DNA of 64,000 nt, taken from the NCBI RefSeq assembly GCF_963921235.1, contig NC_086108.1:13578001-13642000 (forward strand), given 5' to 3'. This document shows positions 5,650-64,000 of the stretch, piece by piece (position 1 is the stretch's first letter; each line of letters starts with the position of its first letter). The DNA is from Mobula hypostoma. Its lineage: Eukaryota. Position numbers and translations under genes: made by a program. The notes below the pieces were generated by a model. That model did no database searches and was not told where the DNA came from. It worked only from the letters and a program-made list of their open reading frames with translations.

Positions 5650-5872
5650 GGCGAGAAAATCTGCAGATCCTGGAAATCCAAGCAACATACACAAAATGCT
5701 GTAGGAACTCAGCAGGCTAGGTAGCATCTATGGAAAACAGTAAACAGCCGATGTTTTGGGCCCAGAATCTTCATCAGGACTCATGAAGGGTCTCAACCTG
5801 AAACATCAACTGTTTACTCTTTTCCATTGACGCTGCCTGGCCTGCAGAGTTCCTCCAACATTTTGTGTGTGT
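5650..5872. mobile_element. Fold-back (inverted) PLE terminal-repeat element with two degenerate hammerhead motifs
   Basis: The arms cacaaaatgctg...cttcatcag and atgaagggtctcaacctgaaacatc...cattttgtgtg are reverse complements. Confidence 0.75.
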
Positions 5873-9899: not shown

Positions 9900-11646
9900 G
9901 GATGCCACAATAGTGTAACAGCACAACGTATTACAACTTGGGGCACTGGAACTCAAGAGTTCATTCCAGTGCCATCTGTAAGGAATCTATACGTCCTCCC
10001 TGTGGAAAGCACGAGTTTTCCCCAGGTGTTCCGGTTTCATAGAAAAATAGGTGCAGGAGTAGGCCATTCGGCCCTTCGAGCCTGCACCGCCATTTATTAT
10101 GATCATGGCTGATCATCCAACTCAGAACCCAGCCCCAGCCTTCCCGCCATACCCCCGATCCCCGTAGCCACAAGGGCCATATCTAACTCCCTCTTAAATA
10201 TAGCCAATGAACTGGCCTCAACTGTTTCCTGTGGCAGAGAATTCCAGATTCACCACTCTCTGTGTGAAGAAGTTTTTCCCAATCTCGGTCCTAAAAGGCT
10301 TCCCCTTTATCCTCAAACTGTGATCCCTCGTTCTGGACTTCCCCAACATCGGGAACAATCTTCCTGCATCTAGCCTGTCCAATCCCTTTAGGATTTTATA
10401 CGTTTCAATCAGATCCCCCCTCAATCTTCTAAATTCCAACGAGTACAAGCCCAGTTCATCCAGTCTTTCTTCATATGAAAGTCCTGCCATCCCAGGAATC
10501 AATCTGGTGAACCTTCTTTGTACTCCCTCTATGGCAAGGATGTCTTTCCTCAGATTAGGGGACCAAAACTGCACACAATACTCCAGGTGTGGTCTCACCA
10601 AGGCCTTGTACAACTGCAGTAGTACCTCCCTGCTCCTGTACTCGAATCCTCTCGCTATAAATGCCAGCATACCATTCGCCTTTTTCACCGCCTGCTGTAC
10701 CTGCATGCCCACTTTCAATGACTGGTGTATAATGACACCCAGGTCTCGTTGCACCTCCCCTTTTCCTAATCGGCCACCATTCAGATAATAATCTGTTTTC
10801 CTATTTTTGCCACCAAAGTGGATAACTTCACATTTATCCACATTAAATTGCATCTGCCATGAATTTGCCCACTCACCCAACCTATCCAAGTCACTCTGCA
10901 TCCTCTTAGCATCCTCCTCACAGCTAACACTGCCACCCAGCTTCATGTCATCCGCAAACTTGGAGAAGCTGCATTTAATTCCCTCATCCAAGTCATTAAT
11001 ATATATTGTAAACAACTGGGGTCGCAGCACTGAGCCTTGCGTTACCCCACTAGTCACCGCCTGCCATTCTGAAAAGGTCCCGTTTATTCCCACTCTTTGC
11101 TTCCTGTCTGCTAACCAATTCTCCATCCACATCAATACCTTACCCCCAGTCTTTACCAGTCTTTTCCTTTTTACATATCTATAAAAGCTTTTACAGTCAG
11201 TTTTTATGTTCCCTGCCAGTTTTCTCTCATAATCTTTTTTTCCCCCTTCCTAATTAAGCCCTTTGTCCTCCTCTGCTGAACTCTGAATTTCTCCCAGTCC
11301 TCAGGTGAGCCACTTTCTCTGGCTAATTTGTATGCTTCTTCTTTGGAATTGATACTATCCCTAATTTCTCGTCAGCCACGGGTGCACTACCTTCCTTGAT
11401 TTATTCGTTTGCCAAACTGGGATGAACAATTGTTGTAGTTCATCCATGCAACCTTTAAATGCTTGCCATTGCATATCCACCGTCAATCCTCCTACATTCC
11501 AAAGATATTACCAGGTAGGTTAATTCAGTGTTGTCAATTGTCCTGTCGTCAGATTAGGGTTAATTGGGGTTCTCAGAGGTTGCTGGGGTGGCATGGCTCA
11601 AAGGGCCGGAAGGGCCCACTCCATGAAGTAGTGCTAAATAAATAAA
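9900..11646 (+). mobile_element. SINE split by a CR1 insertion (halves 9900-10038 and 11488-11646)
   Basis: ccggtttc and ctcctacattccaaaga rejoin into a continuous SINE core; the tail is taaataaataaa. Confidence 0.75.
10039..11487 (-). mobile_element. Young CR1 LINE 3' part with a 305-aa RT ORF and an internal deletion near 11148
   Basis: ORF 10218-11135 has GVTQGSVL, KFADD and RPHLEYCVQFW, and the 3' tail is intact. Confidence 0.93.
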
Positions 11647-12384
11647 GGATGTGCAGTTGTAACCACTCCCATTAGACCACGAAGCACTCGACTTCCTGAA
11701 TATCCAGGATGCAGTAAATAAATGTGCAAGATAGTTTGCTTAATGGTCACATCAGATGCACAGCGAAGAGATAGGTGACTTCCAGATAGGGCAGCAAGAG
11801 GAGGCACATCCCATCTCAAACAGGTATGCAGTGTTGCATGTATATTTTTTTCTGGTGGAAGGAGTGGCATCAAGGTCTTTTATACACACAAGAAAAGACT
11901 AAGAGTGGGAGGGTGATTGTGTTTGGGAATTCTATTGTAAGGTGGGCTGACAGGTGCTTTTATAGCTGCAAATGAAACTACACAATGGTTTGCTACTTCC
12001 CTGGTGCTAATGCTAAGAATGTCTTAGAGTGGCTGCAGGGCATTTAAAGGGGGAGGGTGAATAGCCAGAGGTTATGGCATATGTTGGTATCAATGACATA
12101 AGAAGGGATGAGATCCTGCAAGCCAAGTTGAGGTGGTTAAGTAGCCAGTGCAGAGTATCCCAGTGGTGGCTCCCTCGAAAAATAAGTATACTGTTTTGGA
12201 AACTGTTGGGGCAGGGGAAACAACCTACTAGGGGAAGACACAGCAACTAGTTCTGGTTCTGTGGGTGAGAAGGGAGGTGAGGGGAGAAGAGTGCAGTAGA
12301 GATGAGGGATTCCATAGTTATGAGCAACAGACAGGAGATCCCCTCGACACAAAGGAGACACCCAGATGGTATGCTGCCTCTCAA

Positions 12385-14929
12385 CTGGGGGTTACTCTAT
12401 TGGGGGTATTCTATAGGCCCCCTGGTAGCAGCAGAGATACCGAGGACCAGATTGGGAGGCAGATTTTGGAAAGGTGCAAAAATAACAGGGTTGTTATCAT
12501 GGGTGTCTTTAACTTCCCTAATATTGATTGGCACCTGATTAGTTCCAAGGGTTTAGATAGGGCAGAGTTTGTTAAGTGTGTCCAGGACGGATTCCTGTCA
12601 CAGTATGTGGACAGGCCGACTAGGGGGAATGCCATACTAGATCTAGTACTAGGTAATGAACCGGGTCAGGTCACAGATCTCTCAGTGGGTGAGCATCTGG
12701 GGGACAGTGACCACTGCTCCCTGGCCTTTCGCATTAACATGGAAAAGGATAGAATCAGAGAGGACAGGAAAGTTTTTAATTGGGTTAGGGCAAATTATGA
12801 GGCTATAAGGCTAGAACTTGCGGGTGTGAATTGGGATGATGTTTTTGCAGGGAAATGTACTTGTATGGACAAGTGGTCGATGTTTAGAGATCTCTTGCAG
12901 GATGTTAGGGATAAATTTGTCCCGGTGAGGAAGATAAGGAATGGTAAGGTGAAGGAACCATAGGTGACAAGAGAGGTGGAAAATCTAGTCAGGTGGAAGA
13001 AGGCAGCATACACGAGGTTTAGGAAGCAAGGATCAGATGGGTCTATTGAGGAATATAAGGAAGCAAGAAAGGAGCTTAAGAAGGGGCTGAGAAGAGCAAG
13101 AAGGGGGCATGAGAAGGCCTTGGCGAGTAGGGTAAAGGAAAACCCCAAGGCATTCTTCAATTATGTGAAGAAAAAAGGATGACAGGAGTGAAGGTAGGAC
13201 CCATTAGAGATAAAGGTGGGAAGATGTGCATGGAGGCTGTGGAAGTGAGCAAGGTCCTCAATGAATACTTCTCTTCAGTATTCACCAATGAGAGGGATCT
13301 TGATGGTGAGGACAATATGAGTGAGGTTGATGTTCTGAAGCATGTTGATATTAAGGGAGAGGAGGTGTTGGAGTTGTTAAAATACATTAGGACGGATAAG
13401 TTCCCAGGGCCTGACAGAATATTCCCCAGGCTGCTCCACGAGGCAAGAGAAGAGATTGCTGAGCCTCTGGCTAGGATCTTTATGTCCTCATTGCCCACGG
13501 GAATGGTACCGAGGATTGGAGGGAGGCGAATATTGTCCCCTTGTTCAAAAAAGGTAGTAGGGATAGTCCAGGTAATTATAGACCAGTGAGCCTCATGTCT
13601 GTGGTGGGAAAGCTGTTGGAAAAGATTCTTAGAGATAGGATCTATGGGCATTTAGGGAATCATGGTCTGATCAGGGACAGTCAGCATGGCTTTGTGAAGG
13701 GCAGATCGTGTCTAACAAGCCTGATAGAGTTCTTTGAGGAGGTGACCAGGCATATAGATGAGGGTAGTGCAGTGGATGTGATCTATATGGATTTTAGTAA
13801 GGCATGTGACAAGGTTCCATACGGTAGGCTTATTCAGAAAGTCAGAAGGCATGAGATCCAGGGAAGTTTGGCCCGGTGGATTCAGAATTGGCTTGCCTGC
13901 AGAAGGCAGAGGGTGGTGGTGGAGGGAGTACATTCAGATTGGAGGATTGTGACTAGTGGTGTCCCACAAGGATCTGTTTTGGGACCTCTACTTTTCGTGA
14001 TTTTTATTAACGACCTGGATGTGGGGGTAGAAGGGTGGGTTGGCAAGTTTGCAGATGACACAAAGGTTGGTGGTGTTGTAGATAGTGTAGAGGATTGTCA
14101 AAGATTGCAGAGAGAAATTGATAGGATGCAGGAGTGAGCTGAGAAGTGGCAGATGGAGTTCAACCTGGAGAAGTGTGAGGTGGTACACTTTGGAAGGACA
14201 AACTCCAAGGCAGAGTACAAAGTAAATGGCAGGATACTTGGTAGTGGGGAGGAGCAGAGGGATCTGGGGGTACATGTCCACAGATGCCTGAAAGTTGCCT
14301 GAAATAGGGTAATTAAGAAAGCTTATGGGGTGTTAGCTTTCATAAGTCGAGGGATAGAGTTTAAGAATCGCAATGTAATGATGCAGCTCTATAAAACTCT
14401 GGTTAGGTCACACTTGGAGTACTATGTCCAGTTCTGGTCGCCTCACTATAGGAAGGATGTGGAAGGATTGGAAAGGGTACAGAGGAGATTTACCAGGATG
14501 CTGCCTGGTTTACAGAGTATGCATTATGATCAGAGATTAAGGGAGCTAGGGCTTTACTCTTTGGAGAGAAGGAGAATGAGAGGAGACATGATAGAGGTGT
14601 ACAAGATAATAAGAGGAATAGATAGAGTGGATAGCCAGCACCTCTTCCCCAGGGCACCACTGCTCAATACAAGAGGACATGGCTTTAAGGTAAGGGGTGG
14701 GTAGTTCAAGGGGGATATTAGAGGAAGGTTTTTTTACTCAGAGTGGTTGGTGCGTGGAGTGCACTGCCTGAGTCAGTGGTGGAGGCAGATACACTAGTGA
14801 AGTTTAAGAGACTACTAGACAGGTATATGGAGGAATTTAAGGTGGGGGCTTATATGGGAGGCAGGGTTTGAGGGCAGGCACAATATTGTGGGCCAAAGGG
14901 CCTGTACTGTGCTGTACTATTCTATGTTC
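12385..14929 (+). mobile_element. Younger 5'-truncated CR1 LINE ORF2 (endonuclease plus RT) with few disablements
   Basis: Motifs [44 protein letters not shown] and KFADD; the tail is ctattctatgttc. Confidence 0.93.
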
Positions 14930-22500: not shown

Positions 22501-22868
22501 ACCAAGTGTGAAGATTAAAGTTCTGGTTACCCCTTTACAGGAAGGATGCACAGACACTGGAGGGTGCAGAAAGATTCACCAGGACATTTAGAATACGAGC
22601 TACAAGAGGTTGTACAAATTTGGATTGCTTTCTCTCAATCACTGAAAGTACATAAAATTAAGAGAGTAGCAGAGAGGGTAGATTGTCAGAAACTTTTTCC
22701 CAAGGAGGAAATATCAAATACTAGAGGACATATCTTTAAGGTGAGAAGGGAAAAGTTTAAAGGACATTTATGATGCATGTTTTTTTTAAAAACACAGAAT
22801 AGTAGAATGCACTGCCAGGAGAGATGGTGTAAGCAGGTGTACTATAATTGTTTAACAATTTAGATATA

Positions 22869-24492
22869 CAGTGGCATGCAAAAGATTGGGCAGCCCTGGT
22901 CAAAATTTCTGTTACTGTGAATAGCTAAGCGAGTAAAAGATGATCTGATTTCCAAAAGGCATAAAGTTAAAGATGACACATTTAATATTTTAAGCAAGAT
23001 TACTTTTTTATTTCCATCTTTTACAGCTTCAAAATAACAAAAAAGGAAAAGGGCCCAAAGCAAAAGTTTGGGCACCCTGCATGGTCAGTACTTAGTAACA
23101 CTCCCTTTGGCAAGTATCACAGCTTGTAAACGCTCTCTGTAGCCAGCTAACAGTCTTTCAATTCTTGTTTGGGGGATTTTCACCCATTCTTCCTTGCAAA
23201 AGGCTTCTAGTTCTGTGAGATTCTTGGGTCGCCTTGCATGCACTGCTCTTTTGAGGTCTATCCACATATTTTCGATGATGTTTAGGTCGGGGGACCGTGA
23301 GGGCCATGGCAAAACCTTCAGCTTGCACCTCTTGAGGTAGTCCATTGTAGATTTTGAGGTGTGTTTAGGATCATTATCCTGTTGTAGAGCCATCCTCTTT
23401 TCATCTTCAGCTTTTTCTTTCCCCAAACGGTATAATGTTTGCTCCCAGAATTTGCTGGTATTTAAATGAATTCATTCTTCCCTCTACCAGTGAAATGTTC
23501 CCTGTGCCACTGGCTGCAACACAAGCCCAAAGCATGATCGATCTATCCCCGTGCTTAACAGTTGTAGAGGGGTTATTTTCATGAAATTCTGTACCCTTTT
23601 TTCTCCAAACATACCTTTGCTCATTGCGGTCAAAAAGTTCTATTTTAACTTCATCAGCCCATAGGACTTGTTTCCAAAATGCATCAGGCTTGTTTAGATG
23701 TTCCTTTACAAACTTCTGACGCTGAACTTTGTGGTGAGGACGCAGGAGAGGTTTTCTTCTGATGACTCTTCCACGAAAGTCATATTTGTGCAGGTGTTGC
23801 TTCACAGTAGAACAGTGCACCACCACTCCAGAGTCTGCTAAATCTTCCTGAAGGTCTTTTGCAGTCAAATGGGGGCATTGATTTGCCTTTCGAGCAATAC
23901 TATGATGAGCAATTCTCTTGGAAGGTTTCCTTGGTCTTCTACACCTCAACTTGACCTCCACTGTTCCTCTTAACTGCCATTTCTTAATTACATTACGAAC
24001 TGAGGAAACGGCTACCTGAAAACACTTTGTTATCTCCTTATAGCCTTCTCCTGCTTTGTGGGCATCATTTATTTTAATTTTCAGAGTGCAATGCAGTTGC
24101 TTAGAGGAGCCCACGGCTGCTGATTGTTGGGACAAGGTTTGAGGAGTCAGGGTATTTATAAACCTTTGAAATTTGCATCACCTGGCCTTTCTAACGATGA
24201 CTGTGAACACGCCACAGCCCTAACAAGCTAACTAAGGTCTGAGACCTTGGTAAAAGTTATCTGAGAGTTCAAATCTCTTAAGCTGCCCAAACTTTCGTAT
24301 GGTGCTCCTTTCCTTTTTTCCACTCTAAGATTGTACAAAAGAAAAATAATACACTAATCTTGCTTAAAATGTTGGAAAGAATGTTTCATCTTTAACTTTA
24401 TCGCTTTTGGAGATCAGTTCATCTTCTACTCACTAAACTATTCACAGTAACAGAAATTTTGACCGGGGTGCCTAAACTTTTGCATGCCACTG
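22869..24492 (-). mobile_element. Full-length Tc1-like transposon, family A, with a frameshifted transposase
   Basis: TIRs CAGTGGCATGCAAAAG with TA TSDs. Transposase motifs VLWADE, QDNDPKH and SPDLNIIE. It is inserted in a CR1 tail. Confidence 0.95.
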
Positions 24493-24611
24493 TACACACG
24501 AACAAGTAGGGAATAGAGGGATGCAGGTCATGTGCAGACAGATGGGATTAGCTTTGAATGGCATTATGCTCAGTACAGACATCATGGGCTGAAAGGACTG
24601 TTCCACTACAA

Positions 24612-25720
24612 CTCCCTCTACACTTCTATCCCCCATCAAGAAGACACTGAAGCTCTCTGCTTCTTTTTCAATAAAAGAACCAATCAGCTTCACCACAATC
24701 TTCCTACATCTGGCAAAAAATAGTGCTCTCCCTCAATAATTTTTCCTATCACTCCTCCCACTTTCTCCAGACTTGAGGACTAAACATGAGCACCCACATG
24801 GGCCCCAGCTATGCCTGCCTTCTCGAAGGCTCTGTAGAATAGACCCTGTTCCAAACCTTCCCCAATAATGCTCTCCAACTCTTCATCCACTACATTGATA
24901 ACTCCATTAATGCTGCTTCATGCACCAATGCTGAGCTCATCAATTTTGCCTCCAACTTCTTTAAGGGCCATGCTCTTAAATTCACTTGGTCCATTTCTCC
25001 CACCTTTTCTCAATTCATTCCCTCCCTCTCCATCTCTGGAGAAAAACTGTCTAATATAAACCTACTGAATCCCACAGTTACCTCGACTATACCTCTTCCC
25101 ACCCTGTCTCCTGTAAAAAATGCTATACCCTTTCCTCAATTCCTTCAACCCTGCCACATCTATTCCCAGATTTTCCTTTCCAGAACATCAGAGATGTCCT
25201 TTTTCAAAGAACAGCACTTCCCTTCCTCCACCACTGATGCTGCCCTCCCCACATTTCCTCTATTTCCCAAATGTCTGCATTGATGCCATTTTCCCGCCGC
25301 CATAACAGTGCTGAGTTATTCTTGTCCTTCCCTACCACCACGAGTGTCTGCATCCAACACATCATTCTCCATAACTTCCGCCATTTCCAAAAGGGTCCTA
25401 CCACCAAACACATCTTTACCTTACCCCCCCCCCCCCACATTCCACAGGAATTGCTCCTTCCATGATTCCCCTGTCCTATCGTCACTCCCCACTAATCTAT
25501 CTTCTGGCACTTATCCATGCAAGTGGCAAGTGCTACACTTGCCCATTCACTTTCTCCCCACCTTCATTCAAGCCCCAAATAGTCCTTCCAGGTGAGGCAA
25601 CATTTCCCCTGAGAATCGGCTGGGGTAGTCTATTGTGTCCGGTGCTCCTGATACAGCCTGCTCTACATTGCTGAGGCTCTTCGTAAACTGGGGGACCACT
25701 TCATCTGCTCCATCTGCTGA
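24612..25720 (+). mobile_element. Degraded Penelope-like element (RT plus GIY-YIG)
   Basis: Motifs SLYTSIPH, MGPSYACL and YID, and VVYC..C...LLYI.E..RKLGDHF near 25625-25705. Confidence 0.82.
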
Positions 25721-25724
25721 CATA

Positions 25725-27238
25725 CGTGTTCATTTATTTGTTGAGAAAAATGATCCAATATTACATGTATTTGTTGAAAAAAGTATGCGAATCTTTGCTT
25801 TCAGTAACTGGTAAGACACCCTTGTACAGTAATAATATCAAACATTTCCAGTAACTGTTGACCAGTCCTGCACATTGGCTTGGAGGATCCTAGCCCATTC
25901 CTCCATATGAAACTGTTTTAACTCTGGGATGGATGGTGGGCTTCCTTGCATGAACTGCTTGCTTCAGGTCCTTCCACAACATTTCTATAGGATTAAGGTC
26001 AGGACTTTGAATCAGTCATTCCAAATTTTCTTCTTTTTAAACAATTCTGTTGTTGATTTACTCGTCTTTTAAGTCATTGTCTTGTTGCATTATCCAACTT
26101 CTATTAAGCTTCACATGACAGACTGCTACCCTGACATTTTCCTATAAAATGTCTTGATACAATTTTGAATTCATTGTTCCCTCAATGATTGCAAGCTGTC
26201 CAAGCCCTGAGGCACCAAAGCAGCCCCAAACCATGATGCTCCTTCCACCATGCCTCACAATTGGGATGAGGTTTTGGTGTTGGTGTGCAATGCCCCTTTT
26301 CCTTCAAACATGGCAATGTGCATTCCTGCCAAAAATTTAACGTTTGTTTCAGCTGTCCAGAACATTGTCCAAGTGTTGTAGACACATGAGCAGAGAATTC
26401 AACAAGTTCCAGAGATTTCTGTAGGTTTTTTTTGCTGTTACCCTTAGGTTCTTTTTCACCTCCTTCAGCTTTGTACATTGTGCTCTTGGTGTGATCTTTG
26501 CAGGATGCCCACTCCTAAGCTGAGTAGCAATTGTACTGAGTTTCCTCCATTTGTTGAGAATTCCTCTTACTATGGACTGATGAACATTCAGGTCTTTAGA
26601 AATGTTTTTGTAGCCTTTTCCAGCTTCATGCATCGTGTACACGAATAGATTTTTCTTGAGAAGAGCAGGCTCTGTCAATAACCTGACTTGGTGTGTCTTT
26701 GTTTTTTTAAGAGCAGGGCACCTCTACAACCCACACCTCTAATCTCATCTCTTTCATTGGAACACCCGAATCCAAATAGCTTTTGTAGAAGGCATTACCC
26801 TAGAGGTTCACGTACTTACTTTTTCCAACAAGTACATGTAATATTGGATCATTTTTCACAATAAATAAATGAACAAGTACAACTTTTTTGTGTTATTTAT
26901 TTAATTGGGTCCTCCTTATTTAGTTTTAGGACTTGCATGAAGATCTGATCACATTTTAGGTCATATTTATGCAGAAATAGAGAAAATTAGAACATAGAAC
27001 ATACAAATCCACAGCACATTTCAGGCTCTTCAGCCCACAATGTTGTGCCGAACATGCAACCTACTCGAGAAACTGCTTAGAATTTCCCAACTGCATAGCT
27101 CTCTATTTTTCTAAGTTCCATGTACCTATCTAAGAGTCTCTTAAAAGACCCTATTGTATCCGCCTCTACCACCGTTGCTGGCAGTGTATTCCACGCACCC
27201 ACCACTCTACAGGGTTCACAAACTTTCTAGCACCACTA
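25725..27238 (-). mobile_element. Tc1-like transposon, family B, deleted and carrying a CR1-tail insert (about 26990-27207)
   Basis: One TIR (ttcacaaactttctagcaccact) followed by TA. Transposase remnant HEAGKGYKNISK; homologous to 46123-49074. Confidence 0.85.
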
Positions 27239-40561: not shown

Positions 40562-40729
<168 letters not shown>

Positions 40730-43227: not shown

Positions 43228-43445
43228 AAACATGAGGAAATCTGCAGATGCTGGAAATTCAAGTAACACTCATAAAATATGCTGGTGAATGCAGCAGGCC
43301 AGGCAGCATCCAGAGGGAGAGGTACAGCCGATGTTTTGGGCCGAGGCCCTTCGTCAGACGAAGGGTCTCGGCCCGAAACATCGACTGTACCTCTTCCTCT
43401 AGATGCTGCCTGGCCTGCTGCATTCACCAGCATTTTTTATGTGAG
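43228..43445. mobile_element. Fold-back PLE terminal-repeat element with a 12-bp TSD
   Basis: About 87-bp inverted arms centred on 43356, flanked by the direct repeat GCAGCATGATGG (43215-43226 and 43445-43456). Confidence 0.85.
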
Positions 43446-46122: not shown

Positions 46123-49074
46123 AAGTGGTGCTAGAAAGCTTGTGAACCCTGTTGAAAAGTAACATTAGCAAATTTGCAGATGACACAAAGCTGGGCGGCA
46201 GTGTGAAACGTGAGGAGGATGTTATGAGAATGCAGGGTGACTTGGACAGGCTGGGTGAGTGGGCAGATGCATGGCAGATGCAATTCAATGTGGATAAATG
46301 TGAGGTTATCCACTTTGGTGGTAAGAACAGGAAGGCAGATTATTATCTAAATGGAGTCAAGTTAGGAAAAGGGGAAGTACAACGAGATCTAGGTGTTCTT
46401 GAACACCAGTCACTGAAAGCAAGCATGCAGGTACAGCAGGCAGTGAAGAAAGCTAATGGCATGCTGGCCTTCATAACAAGGGAAATTGAGTATAGGAGCA
46501 AAGAGGTCCTTCTGCAGCTGTACAGGGCCCTGGTGAGACCACACCTGGAGTACTGCATGCAGTTTTGGTCTCCAAATTTGAGGAAGGACATTCTTGCTAT
46601 TGAGGGAGTGCAGCGTAGGTTCACAAGGTTAATTCCCAGGATGGGCGGGACTGTCATATGTTGAAAGATTGGAGTGACTGGGCTTGTATACACTGGAATT
46701 TAGAAGGATGAGAGGGGACCTGATTGAAACATATAAGATTATTAAGGGATTGGACACGCTGGAGGCAGGAAGCATGTTCCCGCTGATGGTTGAATCCAGA
46801 ACCAGAGGCCACAGTTTAAGAATAAGGGGTAGGCCATTTAGAACGGAGTTGAGGAAAAAATTTTTCACCCAGAGAGTGGTGGATATGTGGAATGCTCTGC
46901 CTCAGAAGGCAGTGGCGGCCAAGTCTCTGGATGTTTTCAAGAAAGAGATGGATAGAGCTCTTAAAGATAGCAGAATCAAAGGTTATGCGGATAAGGCAGG
47001 AACTGGATACTGATTGTGGATGATCAGCCATGATCACAGTGAATGGCGGTGCTGGCTCGAAGGGCCGAATGGCCTACTCCTGCACCTATTGTCTATTGAA
47101 TTTTTCTATTTCTCCATAAATATGATCTAAAATGTGATCAGATCTTCACACAGGTCCTAAAACTAAATAAAGAGAACCTAATTAAATAAGTAACACAATA
47201 AACATTATACCTGTTCATTGTTTATTGAGAAAAATGATCCAATATTACATCCACTTGTTGGAAAAAGTATGTGAACCTCTGGGGTCCTACCAAAGTGTCT
47301 TGGCCCGAAATATCGACTGTACTCTTTTCCATAGATGCTGCCTGGCCAGCTGAGTTCCTCTAGCATTTTGTGTGTGTTGCTTAGATTTCCAGCATCTGCA
47401 GATTTTCTCTTGTTTGCGACTGAACCTTTGGGGTAATGGCCTCTAAGAAAACCAACTGGAGTCAGATGGTCCAATCAATGAGATGAGACCGGAAGTGTGG
47501 TTTGTAGATTTTCTGCATTAATTAAAGTGTGGTCGATTCTCAATCTAAGTCACAATAATTAACAAACACAATCTGCTGAAATAATACACTAACAATTGTA
47601 CTTCTCATCAGTATTGAGTGTACCATTTAAACAATCACAGACTAGGTTCAGAGAACTATGTAAATCTCTGGGGTAATGCCTTCTACAAAAGCTATTTGGA
47701 GTCAGGTGTTCCAATCTACATTGGACGTGTGGGTTGCAGAAATGCCCTGCCTTATAAAAGACACACACAAAGTCATGTTACTGACACAGCCTGCTCTTCT
47801 CAAGAAAAATCCGTTTATGTGTACCATGCCTCAATCAAAACAACTTTCAGAGGACCTTAGAAGAATTGTAGATATGCAAGAAGCTGGAAAAGACTACAAA
47901 GGCATTTCTAAAGATCAGAGTGATCATCAGTCCACAGTAAGAAAAATTGTCTACATATGGAGAAAACTCAGTACCATTGCTACTCTCCTTAGGAGTGGGC
48001 ATGCTGCAAAGATCACACGAACAGCACAACATGCAATGCTGAACGAGGTGAAAAAGAACCCAAGGGCAACAGCAAAAGACCTTCATAAATCTCTAGAACT
48101 TGCTCAAGTCCCTGTTCAAGTACCCACTCTAAGAAAACCACTGAACAAGAATGGTGTTCATGGAAGGACACCACGAAGGAAACCACTGCTCTCCAAAAAA
48201 CTGTCTCAAGTTTGCAAATGACCACTTGGATGTTCTACAACACTTCAGGAATAATGTTTCGTAGACAGCTGAGACAAAAGATGAACTTTTTGGTGGAACT
48301 GCACTTTGCTATGTTTGGAGGAAAAAGGGGACTGCACACCAACACCAAAACCTCATTCTGTGAAGCATGATGAAAGGAGTATCATGGTTTGGGGCTGCTT
48401 TGCTGCCTCAGGGCCTGGACAGCTTGCAATCATTGAGGGAACAATGAATTCAAAATTCTATCAAGACATTTTATAGGAGAATGTCAGGATAGCAGTCCAT
48501 CAGGAAGCTTAATAGAAGATGAATATTGCAACAAGACTGACTCAAAAGACAAGAGTAAATCAACAACAGAGTGGTTTAAAAAGAAAAAAAATTCTTGTTT
48601 TGGAATGACTGAGCCAAAGTCCTGATCTTAATCTTACAGAAATGCTTTGGAAGGATCTTAAGACCATAAGACCATAAGACAAAGGAACAGAAGTAGGCCA
48701 TTCGGCAAGCAAGTCATTCAAGGAAACCCACCAACGTCCCAGAATTGAAGCTGTTTTGCAAGGAGGAATGGCTTAAAATTCCTCCAAGCCGATGTGCAGG
48801 ACAGTTACTGGAAATGTTTGAAGTTATTGCTGTACAAGGGGGTCACACTGGTTACTGAAAGCAAAGGTTCACACACTTTTTTTGAACAAATAAATGTAAA
48901 ATTGGATAATTTTTCTCAATAATAAATTAAGAATAATGTTTTTGTGTTATTTAATTAATTGGGTTCCCTTTATCGAGTTTTGGGACTTGCATGACGATCT
49001 GATCACATTTTATGTCATATCTATGCAGAAATAGAGAAAATTCTACAGGGTTCACAAACTTCCCAGCACCACTG
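46123..49074 (+). mobile_element. Tc1-like transposon, family B, with nested CR1, PLE-repeat and other inserts
   Basis: TIR (c/a)agtggtgctagaaag at the left and ttcccagcaccactg plus TA at the right. Transposase ORF 47676-48221 (PQSKQLSEDLR...GRTPRRKPLL). Confidence 0.9.
46157..47095 (+). mobile_element. Young CR1 3' fragment inserted in a Tc1 TIR
   Basis: KFADD...RPHLEYC; TSD TTGAA (46152-46156 and 47096-47100); same subfamily as 10039-11487. Confidence 0.92.
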
Positions 49075-49473: not shown

Positions 49474-49960
49474 CTGCAGACATATTAAAGCATCAGTCAA
49501 ACATCATAAACCAAAAGACAACAGACTCAGCAGATAATTTAGAACATAAAACATAGAAAAAGACACTACAGTACAGGACCTAAGGCCCACAATGTTGTGA
49601 CAACTTTTTAAACCCTACTCCAAGATCAATTTAGCCCTTCTCTCTCACGTAGCCCTTCATTTTTCTTTCTCGCGTTGTTGCTTGTGATGAAGTATTGAAA
49701 ATATTTTTGTCTCAGTCACAAAATTTTTATACCTTTTCCACTCATATTGGTTTCTAATGGTCTATCCATCATTAAGGTATTTTTCAAGCTGTGCTGTCTG
49801 GATTTTGGATTTCTCCGGCCCTGATTTTAAACACTGCATTTGACGTAATCTTGCAAAGACCAGATAAACTCTTATGTGTTTGTGCCCTTTGAAGCCAACG
49901 CCCTTCCCAGTTTGGTGACTTTATGTCCCAGAAACTGCTTTGGGTGACTATTGGCATATA

Positions 49961-51519
49961 CAGTGGCATGCAAAAGTTTGGGCACCCCGGTCAAAATTTC
50001 TGCTACTGTGAAAAGTTAAGTGAGTAGAAGATGAACTGATCTCCAAAAGTCATAAAGTTAAAGATGAAACATTCTTTTCAACATTTTAAGCAAGATTAGT
50101 GTATTATTTTTGTTCTGTACAATTTTAAAGTGGAAAAAAGGAAAGGAGCACCATGCAAAAGTTTGGGCAGCTTAAGAGATTTGAGCTCTCAGATAACTTT
50201 TATTAAGGTCTCAGACCTTAATTAGCTTGCTAGGGCTTGTTCACAGTCATTGTTAGGAAAGGCCAGGTGATGCAAATTTCAAAGCTTTATAAATACCCTG
50301 ACTCCTCAAACCCTGTCCCAACAATCAGCAGCCATGGGCTCCTCCAAGCAGCTGCCCAGCACTCTGAAAATTAAAATACGTGATGCCCACAAAGCAGCAG
50401 AAGGCTATAAGAAGATAGCCGTTTCCTCAGTTCATAATGTAATTAAGAAATGGCAGTTAACAGGAACAGTGGAGGTCAAGTTGAGGTCTGGAAGACCAAG
50501 AAAACTTTCCGAGAGAATTGCTCATAGGATTGCTAGAAAGGCAAATCAAAACCCCGTTTGACGGCAAAAGACCTTCAGGAAGATTTAGCAGACTCTGGAG
50601 TGGTGGTGCACTGTTCTACTGTGTAGCGACACCTGCACAAATATGACCTTCATGGACGAGTCATCAGAAGAAAACCTTTCTTGTGTCCTCACCACAAAAT
50701 TCAGCATCAGAAATTTGCAAAGGAACATCTAAACAAGCCTGATGCATTTTGGAAACAAGTCCTGTGGACTGACGAAGTTAAAATAGAACTTTTTGGCCGC
50801 AATGAGTAAACGTATGTTTGGAGAAAAAAGGGCGCAGAATTTCATGAAAAGAACACCTCTCCAACTGTTAAGCACCGGGGTGAATCAATCATGCTTTGGG
50901 CTTGTGTTGCAGCAGTGGCACGGGGAACATTTCACTGGTAGAGAGAAGAATGAATTCGATTAAATACCAACAAATTCTGGAAGCAAACATCACACAGTCT
51001 GTAAAAAAAAACTGAAGGTGAAAAGATGATGGCTTCTACAACAGGATCCTAAGCACACCTCAAAATCCACAATGGACTACCTAAAGAGGCACAAGCTGAA
51101 GGTTTTGCCATGGCTCTCACAGTCCCCTTACCTAAACATCATCAACAATCTGTGGATAGACCTTTAAAGAGCAGTGCATGGAAGACGGCCCAAGAATCTC
51201 ACATAACTAGAAGCCTTTTGCAAGGAAGAATGGGCAAAAATCCTAAACAAGAATTGCAAGACTCTTGGCTAGCTACAGAACGCGTTTACAAGCTATGATA
51301 CTTGCTGACCATGCAGGGTGCCCAAACTTTTGCTTCGGGCCCTTTTCCTTTTTTATTATTTTGCAACTGTAAAAGATGGAAATAAAATGCTTAAAGTATT
51401 AAAGAAATGTGTCATCTTTAACTTTATGCCTTTTGGAAATCAGGTTATCTTTTCTTCGCTTAGCTACTCACAGTAACTGAAATTTTGACCACGGGTGCCC
51501 AAACTTTTGCATGCCACTG
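49961..51519 (+). mobile_element. Full-length Tc1-like transposon, family A (second copy)
   Basis: TIR CAGTGGCATGCAAAAGTTTGGGCACCC with TA TSDs; disrupted transposase starting MGSSKQLPSTLK. Confidence 0.95.
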
Positions 51520-54500
51520 TATATGCCAATCAATGGAAGGTATTGTGGAAGTTGTGGCAAGGAAAGAGTCAATATAATGCCCAGACAAAGATAGATTACA
51601 GCAGCTCAGCCAAGAAAGGTGCTTGAAGAGCATACTCCCCCCCCCCCTTCCCCCCGCTGCAATAAAGCAACAGAACTGCTCTACGGCAGATGCCATAACT
51701 TTTGTCATGCACCTGGCCCTGACATACACTTATGTCAAAATGCTGTTTTTGGATTTGTTTGCATTTAACAGTATTGTCCCACAGAGCTTGGTGAACAAAC
51801 TCTTAATCGTTTGTCTAGTCACATCACTGTGCAACTGGGTGCTGGACATTCCAACGAACAGACCTCAGAAGGTCAGGATGCATATCTGCTTCTTTCTCCC
51901 CATCATCCTCAACACAGGTGCCCTCCAGGACTGTGTGCTGAGCCTATTACTGTTCACTCTGGTCATTCATGACTGAACGGCCAAACACCCAAGTAATCAC
52001 ACTGACAAGTTTGCTGATGACGTGACAGTGGCGGAGCTCATCACTAACAAAGATGAGATGGCCTACATTGAGGTGGAAGAGCTTGAGGCCTGGTACCAGG
52101 CAAATAACCTCATCTTCAATATCAATAAGACAAAGGGGATGGTTATCAACTTCAGGAGAATTTGCATCACTCATGCCTCTCTTTACAACAGCAGCAAAGC
52201 AGTGGAAATTGCACGTAGATTCAAACTCCTGGGAGTGCACATCTGGAAAACCTCTCAAGATCCCAGAACACATCCTACACAATAAAAAAAGGTCATCAAC
52301 TTTCTGAGGAGGATGAAGAAAACTGGGCAACACACTGAACACTGGAGGAACTCAGCAGGCCAGGCAGCATCTACGGAAAAAACTACAGTCGACTTTTCAG
52401 GTCGAAATGTATGAAGATAGGAACGACTGCGCAAGCACGTAGACGTCAGCGAGTTAGACCGGTGGGAAAAGTTTAAAAAGACAGCTTTATCGTGCTGTAG
52501 GTTTTCTATGTTTCGATGAGAAGTGGACTAAGCACATGTGTAGTAATGTGCAATAAGCATCCTAATATGCTGCATCATTGCTTGGCACAGGGACTGCACT
52601 GCGGCAGACAGGAAGGCTCTACAATGGGTAGTCAAAACTGCCCAACATATCCAAGGCACCAGCCTACCTGCCATCAAGGACATATATACAGAAAGGTACC
52701 GGAAACTTTTCCACTGCTTGTACCATTCCATTCAGGGAGGAGACCATCTGGTATCCACACCATGACCACCATCTCAAAAATAAGTTATTTTCCCCCAATA
52801 CTAAGGCTGATCAATACTTCCACCCACTAACTCATTCCTCCACATACCCTCCACCACTACTTTATCAATTCCTGTTAGTCAACTTATGTACAGACACTCC
52901 TGTTTCTAGAGTCTCTTTATGGACATACAATCAACGGATATTTTCATTATTTATTCATTTACGGGATGTGGGCATTGCCAGCTAAGCCAGCATTTATTGC
53001 CCATCCCTAGTTGCCCTTAAGAAGATGGTGATGAGCTGCCTTCTTGAATTGCTGTAGTCCCCGAGGTATAAGTATACCCACAGTACTGTTACGGAGGGAA
53101 TTCTATGATTTTTACCCAGTGACAATGAAGGAGTGGCAATGTGCTTCCAAGTCAGAATGGTGGTTGACTTGGAGGGGGATTTCCAAGTGGTGGTGTTCCC
53201 AGTTATCTGCTGTTCTCGTCCTTCTGGATGGTCGTGGTCATGGGTCTGGAAAATGCTGCCTTAGGAACTTTGGTGTGTTATTGCAGTGCATCTTGTCGAT
53301 AGTATACACTGCTGCAACTGTTCGCCAATGGTGGAGGGATTGGATGATCGTGGATGGGGCTATCTTATGTATCTTAAACTATCTTATGTATTTGTATTTA
53401 TTATATTAACATTGTTTTTTTCATGTTGCTTTGTATCTAAAGTAACAATTATTTTGTTCTCCTTTGCACTTGTGTACTAGAAAGCGTATTAAAGAATCTT
53501 GAATCTTTAATCTCATGCCTGAGATCACTCTGTGGAGTGAAGGTTTAAAGAACACTGCCTCCATCATGATCAAACAACTATCCCTGATGGAACTGTCATG
53601 GAGTTTACACTCTTTGCTATTGAAATTCAGTCAGATTCACGTTGTCCTTTACAAGAAAGAAAAGGAGGGAGTGTGGACATTGCAGCAAGCCAAAGATTAA
53701 AAAAATGTCCAAGCAAGGATAGGTTGCAAATGGAGTACAGCAGCCCAGGCAAGAAAGGTCTTTGAAGAGCACAACTTCCCTTTGCATTGCAGTTTGCACT
53801 TACTACGACAGTCAATATAATAATATAATGAAAGGATGCAAAACACACAAACCAGCTGAGGGACAATTGTTTCGAAGTATCATCGGTTGTCAGCTCATAG
53901 GTACTAGCCACTTTTAACAACTGTGTCGTGAATGGTGATTTTCTTGCGAGTAAAGAATTCAAACATACATAGCTTGTCAAATAGTCAATATCCACAAATG
54001 CTGGAGCCATAGAGAAGTACAGCACAGAAACAGGCCCTTCTGCCTATCTAATCCATGACAATTATTGAAACTGCCTACTCCCATCAACCTGTACTGGGAC
54101 CATAGCCTCCATATCCCTACTATTCATGTATCTATCCAAACTTGAACGTTGAAATCGAGCTCTTGTGCACCGCTTGTGCTGGCAACCTCAGTGGAAAAAG
54201 CCTGCCTGCATTTAACCAATGTATACCCCTCATTATTTTGTTTACCTCCTTCAAATCTCCTCTCAATCTTTTATATTCTAAAGAATACAGTCCCAATCTA
54301 TTCAATCTTTCCTCAGGTTCTCAGGCTCCAGAGACCCAGCAATATCCTTGTAAATTCTAGCCGATTCTGTATAAAAATGACATTTCTCTGTTCAGAATTC
54401 AGAACAGTGTGAGTGTTCTCCTTATACACAACCATTTATGATTGAGAAATAAGTGCATGTGGTTCAGAATACAACCAGTATCAGAACTGAGTCATGGAGT

Positions 54501-60195: not shown

Positions 60196-60253
60196 CTGTG
60201 AACCTCCACTGAAACCATGGTGCTGGGAATATTCAGGAGAGTCCATAATGCTA
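60196..60253 (-). CDS. COP1: COP1 exon (S/SIMDSPEYSQHHGFSGGSQ)
   Basis: Flanked by ttttcag and gtgagc, 58 nt. Matches human [20 protein letters not shown]; phase 2 to 0. Confidence 0.92.
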
Positions 60254-60348: not shown

Positions 60349-60440
60349 TGCAAGGTTAGGGAGAACGAGCCACAGTGCACATCTCGTGAGTGGAGCAACT
60401 CACGAGATGTGCACTGTGGCTCGTTCTCCTTAACCTTGCA
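60349..60440. repeat. 43-bp inverted repeat with a 6-nt loop
   Basis: 60349-60391 pairs with 60398-60440 with a single mismatch. Confidence 0.95.
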
Positions 60441-61129: not shown

Positions 61130-61242
61130 CTGTGTGATGGGGATGGTGCTTCAAACTGTGGAACTGTGCTATCCAGATTTGGCACATGAGTCAACTCACT
61201 CATAGGAGAATACAGACCTGTTGGCTCATTGAATATCAGCCC
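61130..61242 (-). CDS. COP1: COP1 internal exon (GLIFNEPTGLYSPMSELTHVPNLDSTVPQFEAPSPSH/S)
   Basis: Flanked by tttcag and gtactt. The translation matches the recalled human COP1 segment GLYSP...DSTVPQFEAPSPSHS and ends in phase 2, compatible with the next exon. The acceptor was chosen by phase. Confidence 0.85.
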
Positions 61243-62789
61243 CTGAAAGAAATCCTTACATTAAATGCATTCCATTCTCATTCGGGTTGATAATGTTCTT
61301 CCATCTTCACCACCACCTTTTTACATCTTTTCATTTTTGCCTTAAAACTTTATTGCTTGGAGTGTAGGAGACTGAGGGGTGAACTTACAGAGACTGTCTT
61401 GAGGGGCATAGATAGGGTGAACAGATGGTATTCTCCACCCCCCCAGGAAAATTAAAAACTAGAAGGAATAGGTTTAAGAACCATGTCTCGTCCAAAAACC
61501 AATACACTTAGAAACTTTGCGCTGCCATTTCTATACTTTAAACCACATGCCAGTATTAACTATGAATAGTTGATGCAGCTCTTCATCCAAGATAATCCAA
61601 CAGAACCTCTCAAACTAACATCTACCATTGAGGACAGGAGCTTAGACACATGACAATACCACCATATACAAACCCCGCTTCATGTCACACAGCTTTCTAA
61701 CTTATTAATATATTACTTGTCTCTCAAAATCCTTGATCTGCCTCCACATCAGCACTGTGCAAGCACCTTTTTCATATGGACTGCAACAATTCAAGACTCA
61801 ATTTCACAAGGGAAATCAGCAATAATCACACCTATAAAAAAGGGGCTTAAATAAAAAGTGTCTGCATTGCTGAGACCTTGGCTTAGCTCCCTTCTTCACT
61901 TAGCTCCTTGCCATTCACCCCTGAGCCTTTGTTTCCTTTGACTTCCAAACTCTCACTAATTTTCTGCCTTCCACACCCGGCCTTGCTTCTCTCTATCTAA
62001 ATCAGGTTTTTATGCCCTTGCCATGGCAGTCTAATTGCACGAGATAACTTCCTCCAATGATTCTGTTCCAAATGCACTGCAAACAATCCAACACGTACAA
62101 GTGTCATCTCCCAGGTAAGGTTCCCAGTACACGAGAAAATGTGCAGATCCTGGAAATCCAAAACCACCACACACAATCTGCTGGGGGAACTTAGCAGGTC
62201 AGGCAGCATTTATAGAAAAGAGTCAACTGTCGACGTCTTGGGTGGAGACCCTTCTTCAGGACTTGGTAAAGTTCTCAGTACCACATGAACTAAATCCTTC
62301 CCTCTTAGCTGCATCTGTCAGCATCCTTCCTTCTACAGTACTCTCAAGTACATGGGATGAAAAGTAAACTGATATCCCAAAAACCTCGCAAAGACGACCT
62401 CAACACTTTTTCTACTTCCATCACCAATATGGACCATGAACGAGTCATAAATTTGTACAGTACAGAAATGGGCCCTGAAGCCCACTACATCCATGCCAAC
62501 ACCTCTGCCCATTACTTCATCAATTCTTCTACTCATCTTCTTAAGTCCATCTAAATGCCTCTTCAATAGAGCAATTGTATCTGATTCTACTTCCTCTTCT
62601 GGCAGTGTGCTCACTGTATTAAAAAAAATCCTTCCTCTCACCTTAAGCCTATACCCTTTTGTTTTTGATACTTCTAGTATGGGGAAAAACATTTTACCTA
62701 CCTTGCCCATGCCTCAAGATCTTACATATTACTGTCGACCTTCTTCACTCCAAGGAAAACAAGTCCAGCCCATCCTTTCTCCTCACACC

Positions 62790-63585
62790 AGTCCCGACTA
62801 GGAGTTGAGGATGCCATCATCTACCTGCTGAACCGTGTCTACGCCCACCTGGACAAGCCAGCGAGCACTGTGAGGGTCATGTTTTTTGACTTCTCCAGTG
62901 CGTTCAACACCATCTGCCCTGCTCTGCTGGGGGAGAAGCTGACAGCGATGCAGGTGGATGCTTCCCTGGTATCATGGATTCTTGATTACCTGACTGGCAG
63001 ACCACAGTACGTGTGCTTGCAACACTGTGTGTCCGACAGAATGATCAGCAGCACTGGGGACTGTCTTGTCTCCCTTTCTCTTCACCATTTACACCTCGGA
63101 CTTCAACTACTATACAGAGTCTTGTCATCTTCAGAAGTTTTCGGATGACTCTGCCATAGTTGGATGCATCAGCAAGGGAGATGAGGCTGAGTACAGGGCA
63201 ACGATAAGATACTTTGTCACATGGTGTGAGCAGAATTATCGGCAGCTTAATGTGAAAAAGACTAAGGAGCTGGTGGTAGACCTGAGGAGAGCTAAGGTAC
63301 CAGTGACCCCTGTTTCCATCCAGGGGGTCAGTGTGGACATGGTGGAGGATTACAAATACCTGGGGATACGAATTGACAATAAACTGGACTGGTCAATGAA
63401 CACTGAGGCTGTCTACAAGAAGGGTCAGAGCCGTCTCTATTTCCTGAGGAGACTGAGGTCCTTTAACATCTGCCGGACGATGCTGAGGATGTTCTATGAG
63501 TCTGTGGCGGCCAATGCAACCACGTTTGCTGTTGTGTACTGGGGCAGCAGGCTGAAGGTAGCAGACAACAACAGAATCAACAAAA
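62790..63585 (+). mobile_element. Young Rex1/Babar-like LINE RT
   Basis: Motifs FFDFSSAFNTI, LSPFLFTIYT, KFSDD, KTKELVVD and QSRLYFLRRL. Confidence 0.92.
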
Positions 63586-64000
63586 ACAACAGGAATTCTG
63601 CAGATGCTGGAAATTCAAGCAACATACATCAAAGTTGCTGGTGAACGCAGCAGGCCAGGCAGCATCTATAGGAAGAGGCGCAGTCGACGTTTCAGGCCGA
63701 GACCCTTCGTCAGGACTAACTGAAGGAAGAGTGAGTAAGGGATTTGAAAGCTGGAGGGGGAGGGGGAGATGCAAAATGATAGGAGAAGACAGGAGGGGGA
63801 GGGATGGAGCCGAGAGCTGGACAGGTGATAGGCAGAAGGGGATACGAGAGGATCATGGGACAGGAGGTCCGGGAAGAAAGACGGGGGGGGGGGGGGGTGA
63901 CCCAGAGGATGGGCAAGAGGTATATTCAGAGGGACAGAGGGAGAAAAAGGAGAGTGAGAGAAAGAATGTGTGCATTAAAAAGAGTAACAGATGGGGTACG
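63586..64000 (-). mobile_element. PLE 3' terminal region with a pyrimidine-rich tract on the minus strand, interrupting the Rex1 element
   Basis: Same ctgcagatgctggaaattc repeat family as the copies at 5650, 16279, 43228, 47284 and 62130. The link to PLEs is inferred from the hammerhead motif. Confidence 0.7.
63682..63717 (-). ncRNA. Minimal type I hammerhead ribozyme motif
   Basis: AGUC-CUGACGA-AGG(GUCUCGG)CCU-GAAACGUC-GACU: stem I, catalytic core, stem II, palindromic ACGU stem III and a GUC cleavage triplet. Confidence 0.8.

Follow-up and report, generated by a model that had tools for sequence, protein, structure and literature searches.

A minimal hammerhead motif at the 3′ end of a young Penelope-like insertion in a COP1 intron of Mobula hypostoma is likely a silent passenger

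The window analyzed here is a 64,000-nt stretch of the Mobula hypostoma genome (NC_086108.1, positions 13,578,001 to 13,642,000). L031 is the locus adjoining it; an L031 position plus 64000 gives the continued window numbering, and negative numbers continue it leftwards. Short peptide motifs that we take to be those of COP1 place its exons on the minus strand, between about 103400 and -30800, and the single exon compared with known proteins (40589-40708) matches human COP1/RFWD2 with an E value of 5.6e-20. One intron of 10,013 nt runs on the minus strand from 71255 to 61243 (L031:7255 to window position 61243), with splice sites read from the sequence; we take it to be intron 7 in human COP1 numbering. 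It is followed by the exon at 61130..61242 (minus strand), whose lower boundary is approximate. Within this intron lies a 36-nt minimal type I hammerhead motif (63682..63717, minus strand), defined by letter-for-letter reading and a descriptor match. Since COP1 exons and motif share the minus strand, the motif is in COP1 sense orientation, as the preliminary description of this DNA had stated.

Several other repeats are present in the window. LINE fragments with reverse transcriptase (RT) and endonuclease sequences, presumably CR1-like, are found at 10218-11249, 12232-14704, and 46146-46892. Two long inverted copy pairs carry transposase-like frames (22864-24494 with 49959-51524, and 25777-26633 with 47874-48882), which we assume to be Tc1-like. 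Moreover, an 84-nt near-perfect hairpin occurs at 60353-60436, with the COP1 exon at 60240 some 100 bases away; matches of the hairpin to miRNA models are far below the gathering scores, and it is probably a small inverted-repeat element.

The motif sits in a Penelope-like (PLE) insertion of 3,291 bp in all (63585-66875, minus strand), of which 63585..64000 falls in the window. The target of the insertion was an older LINE RT fragment (62780..63584, plus strand), presumably of Rex1 type, whose frame resumes after L031:2890. A 15-bp target-site duplication flanks the element, with its left copy at 63570..63584 (plus strand) and its right copy at L031:2876-2890. The near end of the insertion alone carries a 32-bp tail (63585..63616, minus strand). 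The adjacent segment (63617..63969, minus strand) is duplicated in inverted orientation at the far end, where a 353-bp copy of the 3′ end (L031:2524-2875, plus strand) ends at the equivalent of 63617 and contains an identical motif (L031:2775-2810, that is 66775-66810). The predicted 353-bp duplex in COP1 pre-mRNA spans the whole motif, and because the two arms are 99.7% identical, the insertion is very young. Upstream of the hammerhead, a pyrimidine-rich 3′ UTR (63718..64000, minus strand) extends to the endonuclease stop codon at L031:16-18.

The coding frames begin 300 bases past the motif, on the same strand. The GIY-YIG endonuclease (EN) frame occupies L031:16-537 (minus strand), just beyond the window end, and the RT frame, which is 5′-truncated, lies within L031:339-2523 (minus strand) in a frame other than that of the endonuclease. 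Owing to this frameshift and the 5′ truncation the COP1-intron insertion is not intact, and its Pfam scores for RT and GIY-YIG are weak, that for RT being under the cut-off. Intact copies elsewhere have one 1043-codon ORF with RT followed by GIY-YIG, and the Pfam matches to RVT_1 and GIY-YIG are again both weak. In an intact natural copy, a CX4CxxC linker is located at residue 910, between RT and EN; a CxxC precedes YIGET, two histidine motifs follow downstream, and two cysteines lie within the GIY-YIG core. Judged from these residues, the linker and the GIY-YIG cysteines point to an EN+ PLE of Neptune or Nematis type, in line with the CX2-5CxxC linker described as common to both (PMC8557442). 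Pseudo-LTRs (pLTRs), an inverted 5′-truncated arm, a one-sided tail, and a target-site duplication of variable length are likewise among the PLE features described there (PMC8557442), and the anatomy of the insertion, with pLTRs, an inverted 5′-truncated arm, a tail at one end, and a target-site duplication, fits this pattern.

Reading the minus strand from 63717 to 63682, we recovered the same letters, intact core, 4-bp stem I, and loopless ACGU that had been given in the preliminary description. Stem I (AGUC/GACU) pairs 63717-63714 with 63685-63682. It is followed by the intact core CUGACGA (63713-63707), a bulged A at 63706, which is the unpaired base between positions 9 and 10.1, and stem II (GGGU/GCCU with the loop CUCG), in which 63705-63702 pair with 63697-63694 and the closing pair is G10.1·U11.1. 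The intact GAAA (63693-63690) leads into the palindromic loopless helix III, ACGU (63690-63687), and the predicted cut lies between the scissile C17 at 63686 and 63685 (all on the minus strand). Stem II is present and is better drawn in this way than in the earlier 3-bp form. The register with a bulged A and 4 bp has an energy of -6.0 kcal/mol versus -4.6 kcal/mol for the register drawn first (energy model), and it is that of the published consensus for minimal hammerhead ribozymes (min-HHRs; PMC4209133); the A-U register was dropped as less stable and off that consensus. Directly upstream of the motif, TCAGTT (63723-63718, minus strand) marks a possible pLTR start site. It resembles an initiator element.

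We considered whether the resemblance to the hammerhead consensus might be fortuitous. Folded by itself, the 36-mer is no more stable than its shuffled versions (z -0.37), and a covariance search, which had been proposed earlier as a check, gave no support to the assignment: an Rfam scan of the window returned no hammerhead family up to E 5. Against this reading, the min-HHR descriptor matched once in the 64-kb window, at 63682..63717, while none of 100 first-order Markov surrogates, each 64 kb long, contained a match, and the motif closely resembles the published Acropora Neptune motif (PMC4209133). Its fixed position in the pLTRs of all 20 full-length copies, described below, also speaks against chance, which we regard as almost certainly not the explanation.

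The motif belongs to an abundant repeat family, as had been proposed. The exact 36-mer occurs 32,886 times in the 3.48-Gb genome, and a 34-mer with two free positions occurs 45,476 times, with 0 matches for the reversed-pattern control in both searches. A 200-aa piece of the ORF gave at least 150 genome matches, with 97-100% identity among the matches listed. From the 150 matches listed, we picked 20 full-length copies for their long open frames. In every one, the 1043-codon frame lies between two same-strand motifs spaced 3,504-3,519 bp apart; 36 of these 40 flanking motifs are identical to that at 63682..63717, and four of the 20 stretches also hold an opposite-strand motif. Two same-strand motifs per full element is the published PLE arrangement (PMC4209133). 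With RT and GIY-YIG frames adjoining the motif in the COP1 intron and the motif found twice in each full-length copy examined, the earlier view of the repeat as a ribozyme-bearing PLE end is well founded. An endonuclease-anchored search for unrelated hammerhead families yielded only the same motif type at the loci examined, where the 28 of 101 matches with less than 90% identity were inspected.

Inverted arrangements are common in this family. Among the first 100 places of the 34-mer, 17 neighbor pairs lie within 6 kb, of which nine are back to back, four face each other, and four are on the same strand; about 2.6 pairs are expected per class, and the back-to-back arrangement, inverted as in the COP1 intron, is the commonest. 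Loci L105-L110 were considered as full-length tandems and rejected, being separate or truncated insertions. Older members are also seen in the window. At 43228-43442, two older family tails are joined back to back inside the motif to form a long palindrome, with similar pairs at 5654-5852 and at several loci, and an older PLE fragment (24613-25701) is 69% identical to the coding region of the element.

To describe conservation, we searched 723,797 bases with the tail alone, which gave 62 copies, and kept 55, the other seven being dropped for low identity or because they fell short of the 5′ end of the motif. Differing cells numbered 40/550 at non-CpG core positions, 111/990 at other motif positions, and 340/3,080 in the tail (p about 0.01), an outcome that the filter and the non-independent pairs favor. 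G12 is replaced by A in 13 of the 55 copies, and therefore the core decays in inserted copies. Between subfamilies, the motif is 0.83, 0.86, and 0.94 identical versus 0.53-0.61 upstream and 0.55-0.70 downstream, in three informative rows, two of which had been selected through the motif, out of a total of 11; of the other eight rows, five were dropped at zero identities and three were copies of the same subfamily. In contigs from four runs of four organisms, the motif changes only at N7, 11.1, 16.2, 17, and the outer stem I base in the rows shown (22 others not shown). The flanks show near-fixed differences in the runs of the two distant organisms, and every one of the four runs has an accumulation of loose ends at 63681 and 63717.

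Position 11.1 (63694) deserves separate attention. It is U in the motif at 63682..63717 and C in the consensus, and among the 55 copies it is U in 30 and C in 21. The youngest subfamily has G·U in place of G-C at 10.1-11.1. A second subfamily (L113, L132-L134, L138, and L139) has C11.1 and the loop UUCC, and its stem I is shorter and its tail different. By contig depth, the share of C at 11.1 is 21% and 29%, rising to 55% and 87% in the runs of more distant organisms (X1, X5, X9, and X12), a trend suggesting that U11.1 arose recently in the active subfamily of the Mobula hypostoma lineage. A search for compensatory stem changes gave no clean pair: two stem I pairs showed few double changes (216 and 348 matches), and these were mixed. 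The 216-match change was rejected as covariation, being by appearance mostly CpG decay plus single changes, and the 348-match change was rejected because it reflects the UUCC-loop subfamily, with a 3′ C and a mixed 5′ partner.

These patterns bear on whether the family keeps the motif for a non-catalytic job, as a structure or promoter mark such as a reverse transcription stop or a transcription start, with no copy cleaving. Among 31 young copies (window and L031-L104), 14 start within 10 bases of the 5′ edge of the motif and none at the cut site. The monomer, which lacks helix III, folds best as a rod that pairs core bases with the cut site, and the G·U at 10.1-11.1 in the youngest subfamily costs the dimer 5 kcal/mol. 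Other functions are left open in PMC4209133, and HHR function in EN+ PLEs is called unclear in PMC8557442. Set against these points, the catalytic letters are kept across subfamilies and in other species while the flanks change, as selection for catalysis predicts, and G·U closing of stem II also occurs in several of the published min-HHRs (PMC4209133), where the G10.1-C11.1 closing pair is an over 80% consensus and not invariant. We consider a purely non-catalytic job unlikely, at perhaps one chance in a few; it concerns the whole family and is compatible with the COP1 copy being a passenger.

The COP1 intron harbors a second insertion of the same family (L031:5780-7213), with a sense motif at L031:5880-5915 (minus strand) and an antisense motif at L031:7111-7146 (plus strand). 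Cutting of the intron had been made conditional on a partner copy, and one is indeed within reach: the sense motif at 69880-69915 (L031:5880-5915) is identical, 6.2 kb off, and in the same intron. In the pre-mRNA, the order is antisense arm, sense motif, antisense arm, sense motif, so that each sense motif emerges after a complementary arm. Only 42 nt separate the start of the second insertion from the 5′ splice site at L031:7255, where the insertion would fold into a 350-bp duplex. Together with other inverted copies across COP1 exons, such as the sense copy near L035:431, the insertion at L031:5780-7213 could give rise to ADAR editing or back-splicing.

With such a partner at hand, the two identical sense motifs (L031:5880-5915 and 63682-63717) might assemble into a dimeric hammerhead whose cutting of COP1 pre-mRNA is frequent enough to reduce or change COP1 output. 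Both copies are core-intact, in sense orientation, and in one 10-kb intron, and the dimer can be drawn without mismatch. For the S. mansoni min-HHR, no monomer cleavage and low dimer and trimer cleavage in vitro are on record (PMC4209133), and an intronic ribozyme that may influence its host gene is reported for CPEB3 (PMC10274809). The predicted folds favor a different outcome. When the 3,291-nt insertion was folded, all 36 motif bases were paired with its inverted copy. The two antisense arms are transcribed ahead of the sense copies, and under nearest-neighbor energies, which ignore Mg2+, tertiary contacts, hnRNP coating, and ADAR unwinding, the arm duplexes of the two insertions are worth hundreds of kcal/mol (-791.8 and -747.4 kcal/mol). 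With the same limits, the active dimer comes to -9.5, two monomers to -20.0, and the inactive cofold to -28.3 kcal/mol, leaving the active dimer about 19 kcal/mol worse than the inactive cofold; for a natural C11.1 copy, the values are -14.7 for the dimer versus -32.1 kcal/mol. In a full-length copy, one active hammerhead lies 13.6 kcal/mol above the optimum in the same model, and since this charge applies there too, dimer energy alone cannot separate working from idle copies.

In 579,797 bases of 30 gene stretches, we counted 37 sense and 27 antisense intragenic matches (p 0.26), and hence found no deficit of sense copies in introns; among core-intact copies the counts were 16 and 8 (p 0.15; permissive core test). 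These counts are small, the gene strands come from unverified WD40 exon matches and COP1, and inverted pairs are non-independent. Sense copies in introns are thus not rare, and in other genes they include neighboring sense copies, both with an intact core, at spacings of 2.1 and 2.7 kb. Sense orientation is itself uninformative, because the inverted geometry puts one sense copy in the transcript of either strand. The youth of the insertion also argues against an effect on COP1. Collectively, with the inverted copy pairing the whole motif in the predicted fold, the active dimer disfavored, and sense copies not depleted from introns, the earlier suggestion that the motif could cut the COP1 intron is not supported: cutting by the copy at 63682..63717 is unlikely according to the modeled folds, and a dimer that changes COP1 output is very improbable. 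We would give equally little credence to an extended scheme in which the COP1 dimer cuts the pre-mRNA whenever the antisense arms are unwound, the PLE burst having seeded introns with latent ribozyme pairs and the inverted arm making them tolerable to the host as a built-in antisense safety catch.

In our judgment, the motif is very probably the min-HHR of the 3′ pLTR of a young, 5′-truncated PLE in a COP1 intron, a likely silent passenger whose predicted state is a 350-bp duplex with the inverted arm of the same element. In full-length elements, by analogy and from sequence conservation, a dimeric hammerhead would arise from the two motifs, the 5′ half of one pairing with the 3′ half of the other. 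Helix III of this dimer would be the 4-bp ACGU, and the ribozyme would process or trim the RNA of the element, probably with protein help; master lineages would keep the motif because of such processing. At COP1, RNA polymerase would make the antisense arm first, and the sense motif would pair with it on emerging. The intron would then be spliced out and discarded, and the copy would decay neutrally like older ones.

As an ordinary family member, the single COP1 copy is of little importance. The family itself is useful: it is very young, many of its full-length frames are open and have a motif on either side, and its identical copies number in the tens of thousands and cover all arrangements. 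Because it is young, numerous, and identical, the role of PLE hammerheads is easier to test here than in old, varied families. This role is an open question (PMC8557442) that the family suits well, offering a huge target for the mapping of cleavage ends and copies in introns whose orientation is countable in large numbers. Were host introns indeed cut by such copies, gene regulation could spring from a transposon burst, but the present evidence speaks against this.

In the literature searched, we found no account of the hammerhead of this family or of a PLE hammerhead in COP1, which does not prove that none exists. The motif resembles host intronic ribozymes, such as CPEB3 and the amniote intronic hammerheads, in being of self-cleaving type and in sense orientation within an intron. 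CPEB3-type ribozymes and the conserved amniote intronic hammerheads are single conserved loci that are able to fold as monomers. In contrast, the COP1 motif is a young copy of a mass repeat, without a monomeric helix III, and a domesticated host ribozyme was rejected on the grounds of the 32,886 identical copies, the young insertion, and that missing helix. Non-LTR retrozymes (bioRxiv 10.64898/2026.07.22.740005) also carry a type I hammerhead related to PLE pLTRs; they are reported there in one chondrichthyan genome and are depleted from Xenopus introns. However, these are non-coding tandem arrays, whereas the motif here is the end of a coding element with an inverted arm and no tandem array, and this assignment was rejected as well.

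Compared with intact EN+ PLEs of Neptune or Nematis type (Craig et al. 2021, PMC8557442), the COP1 copy differs in being 5′-truncated and frameshifted. The closest system is that of the metazoan PLE min-HHRs (Cervera and De la Pena 2014, PMC4209133), among which the closest row is Acropora digitifera Neptune; names of cartilaginous fish were absent from the alignment rows examined in supplementary file 2 of that paper. Shared features are CUGANGA with a bulged base, short stems I and II, GAAA-C-G-U-C, a palindromic loopless helix III, and a U-rich 5′ flank, as well as, in full elements, a pair of motifs with a spacing of about 3 kb. Moreover, truncated elements with single or opposite-strand motifs are described there, and an inverted second copy like that at COP1 is seen in the Cotesia example. 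The dominant subfamily differs from the published consensus at 11.1, with U instead of C, although G·U is present in several published rows. Copy number also differs, with 32,886 identical motifs here versus about 4,000 and 9,000 variable motifs in coelacanth and Xenopus, respectively (PMC4209133). Collectively, the motif belongs to a class that is already described, and the COP1 copy is notable only for the copy number and youth of its family.
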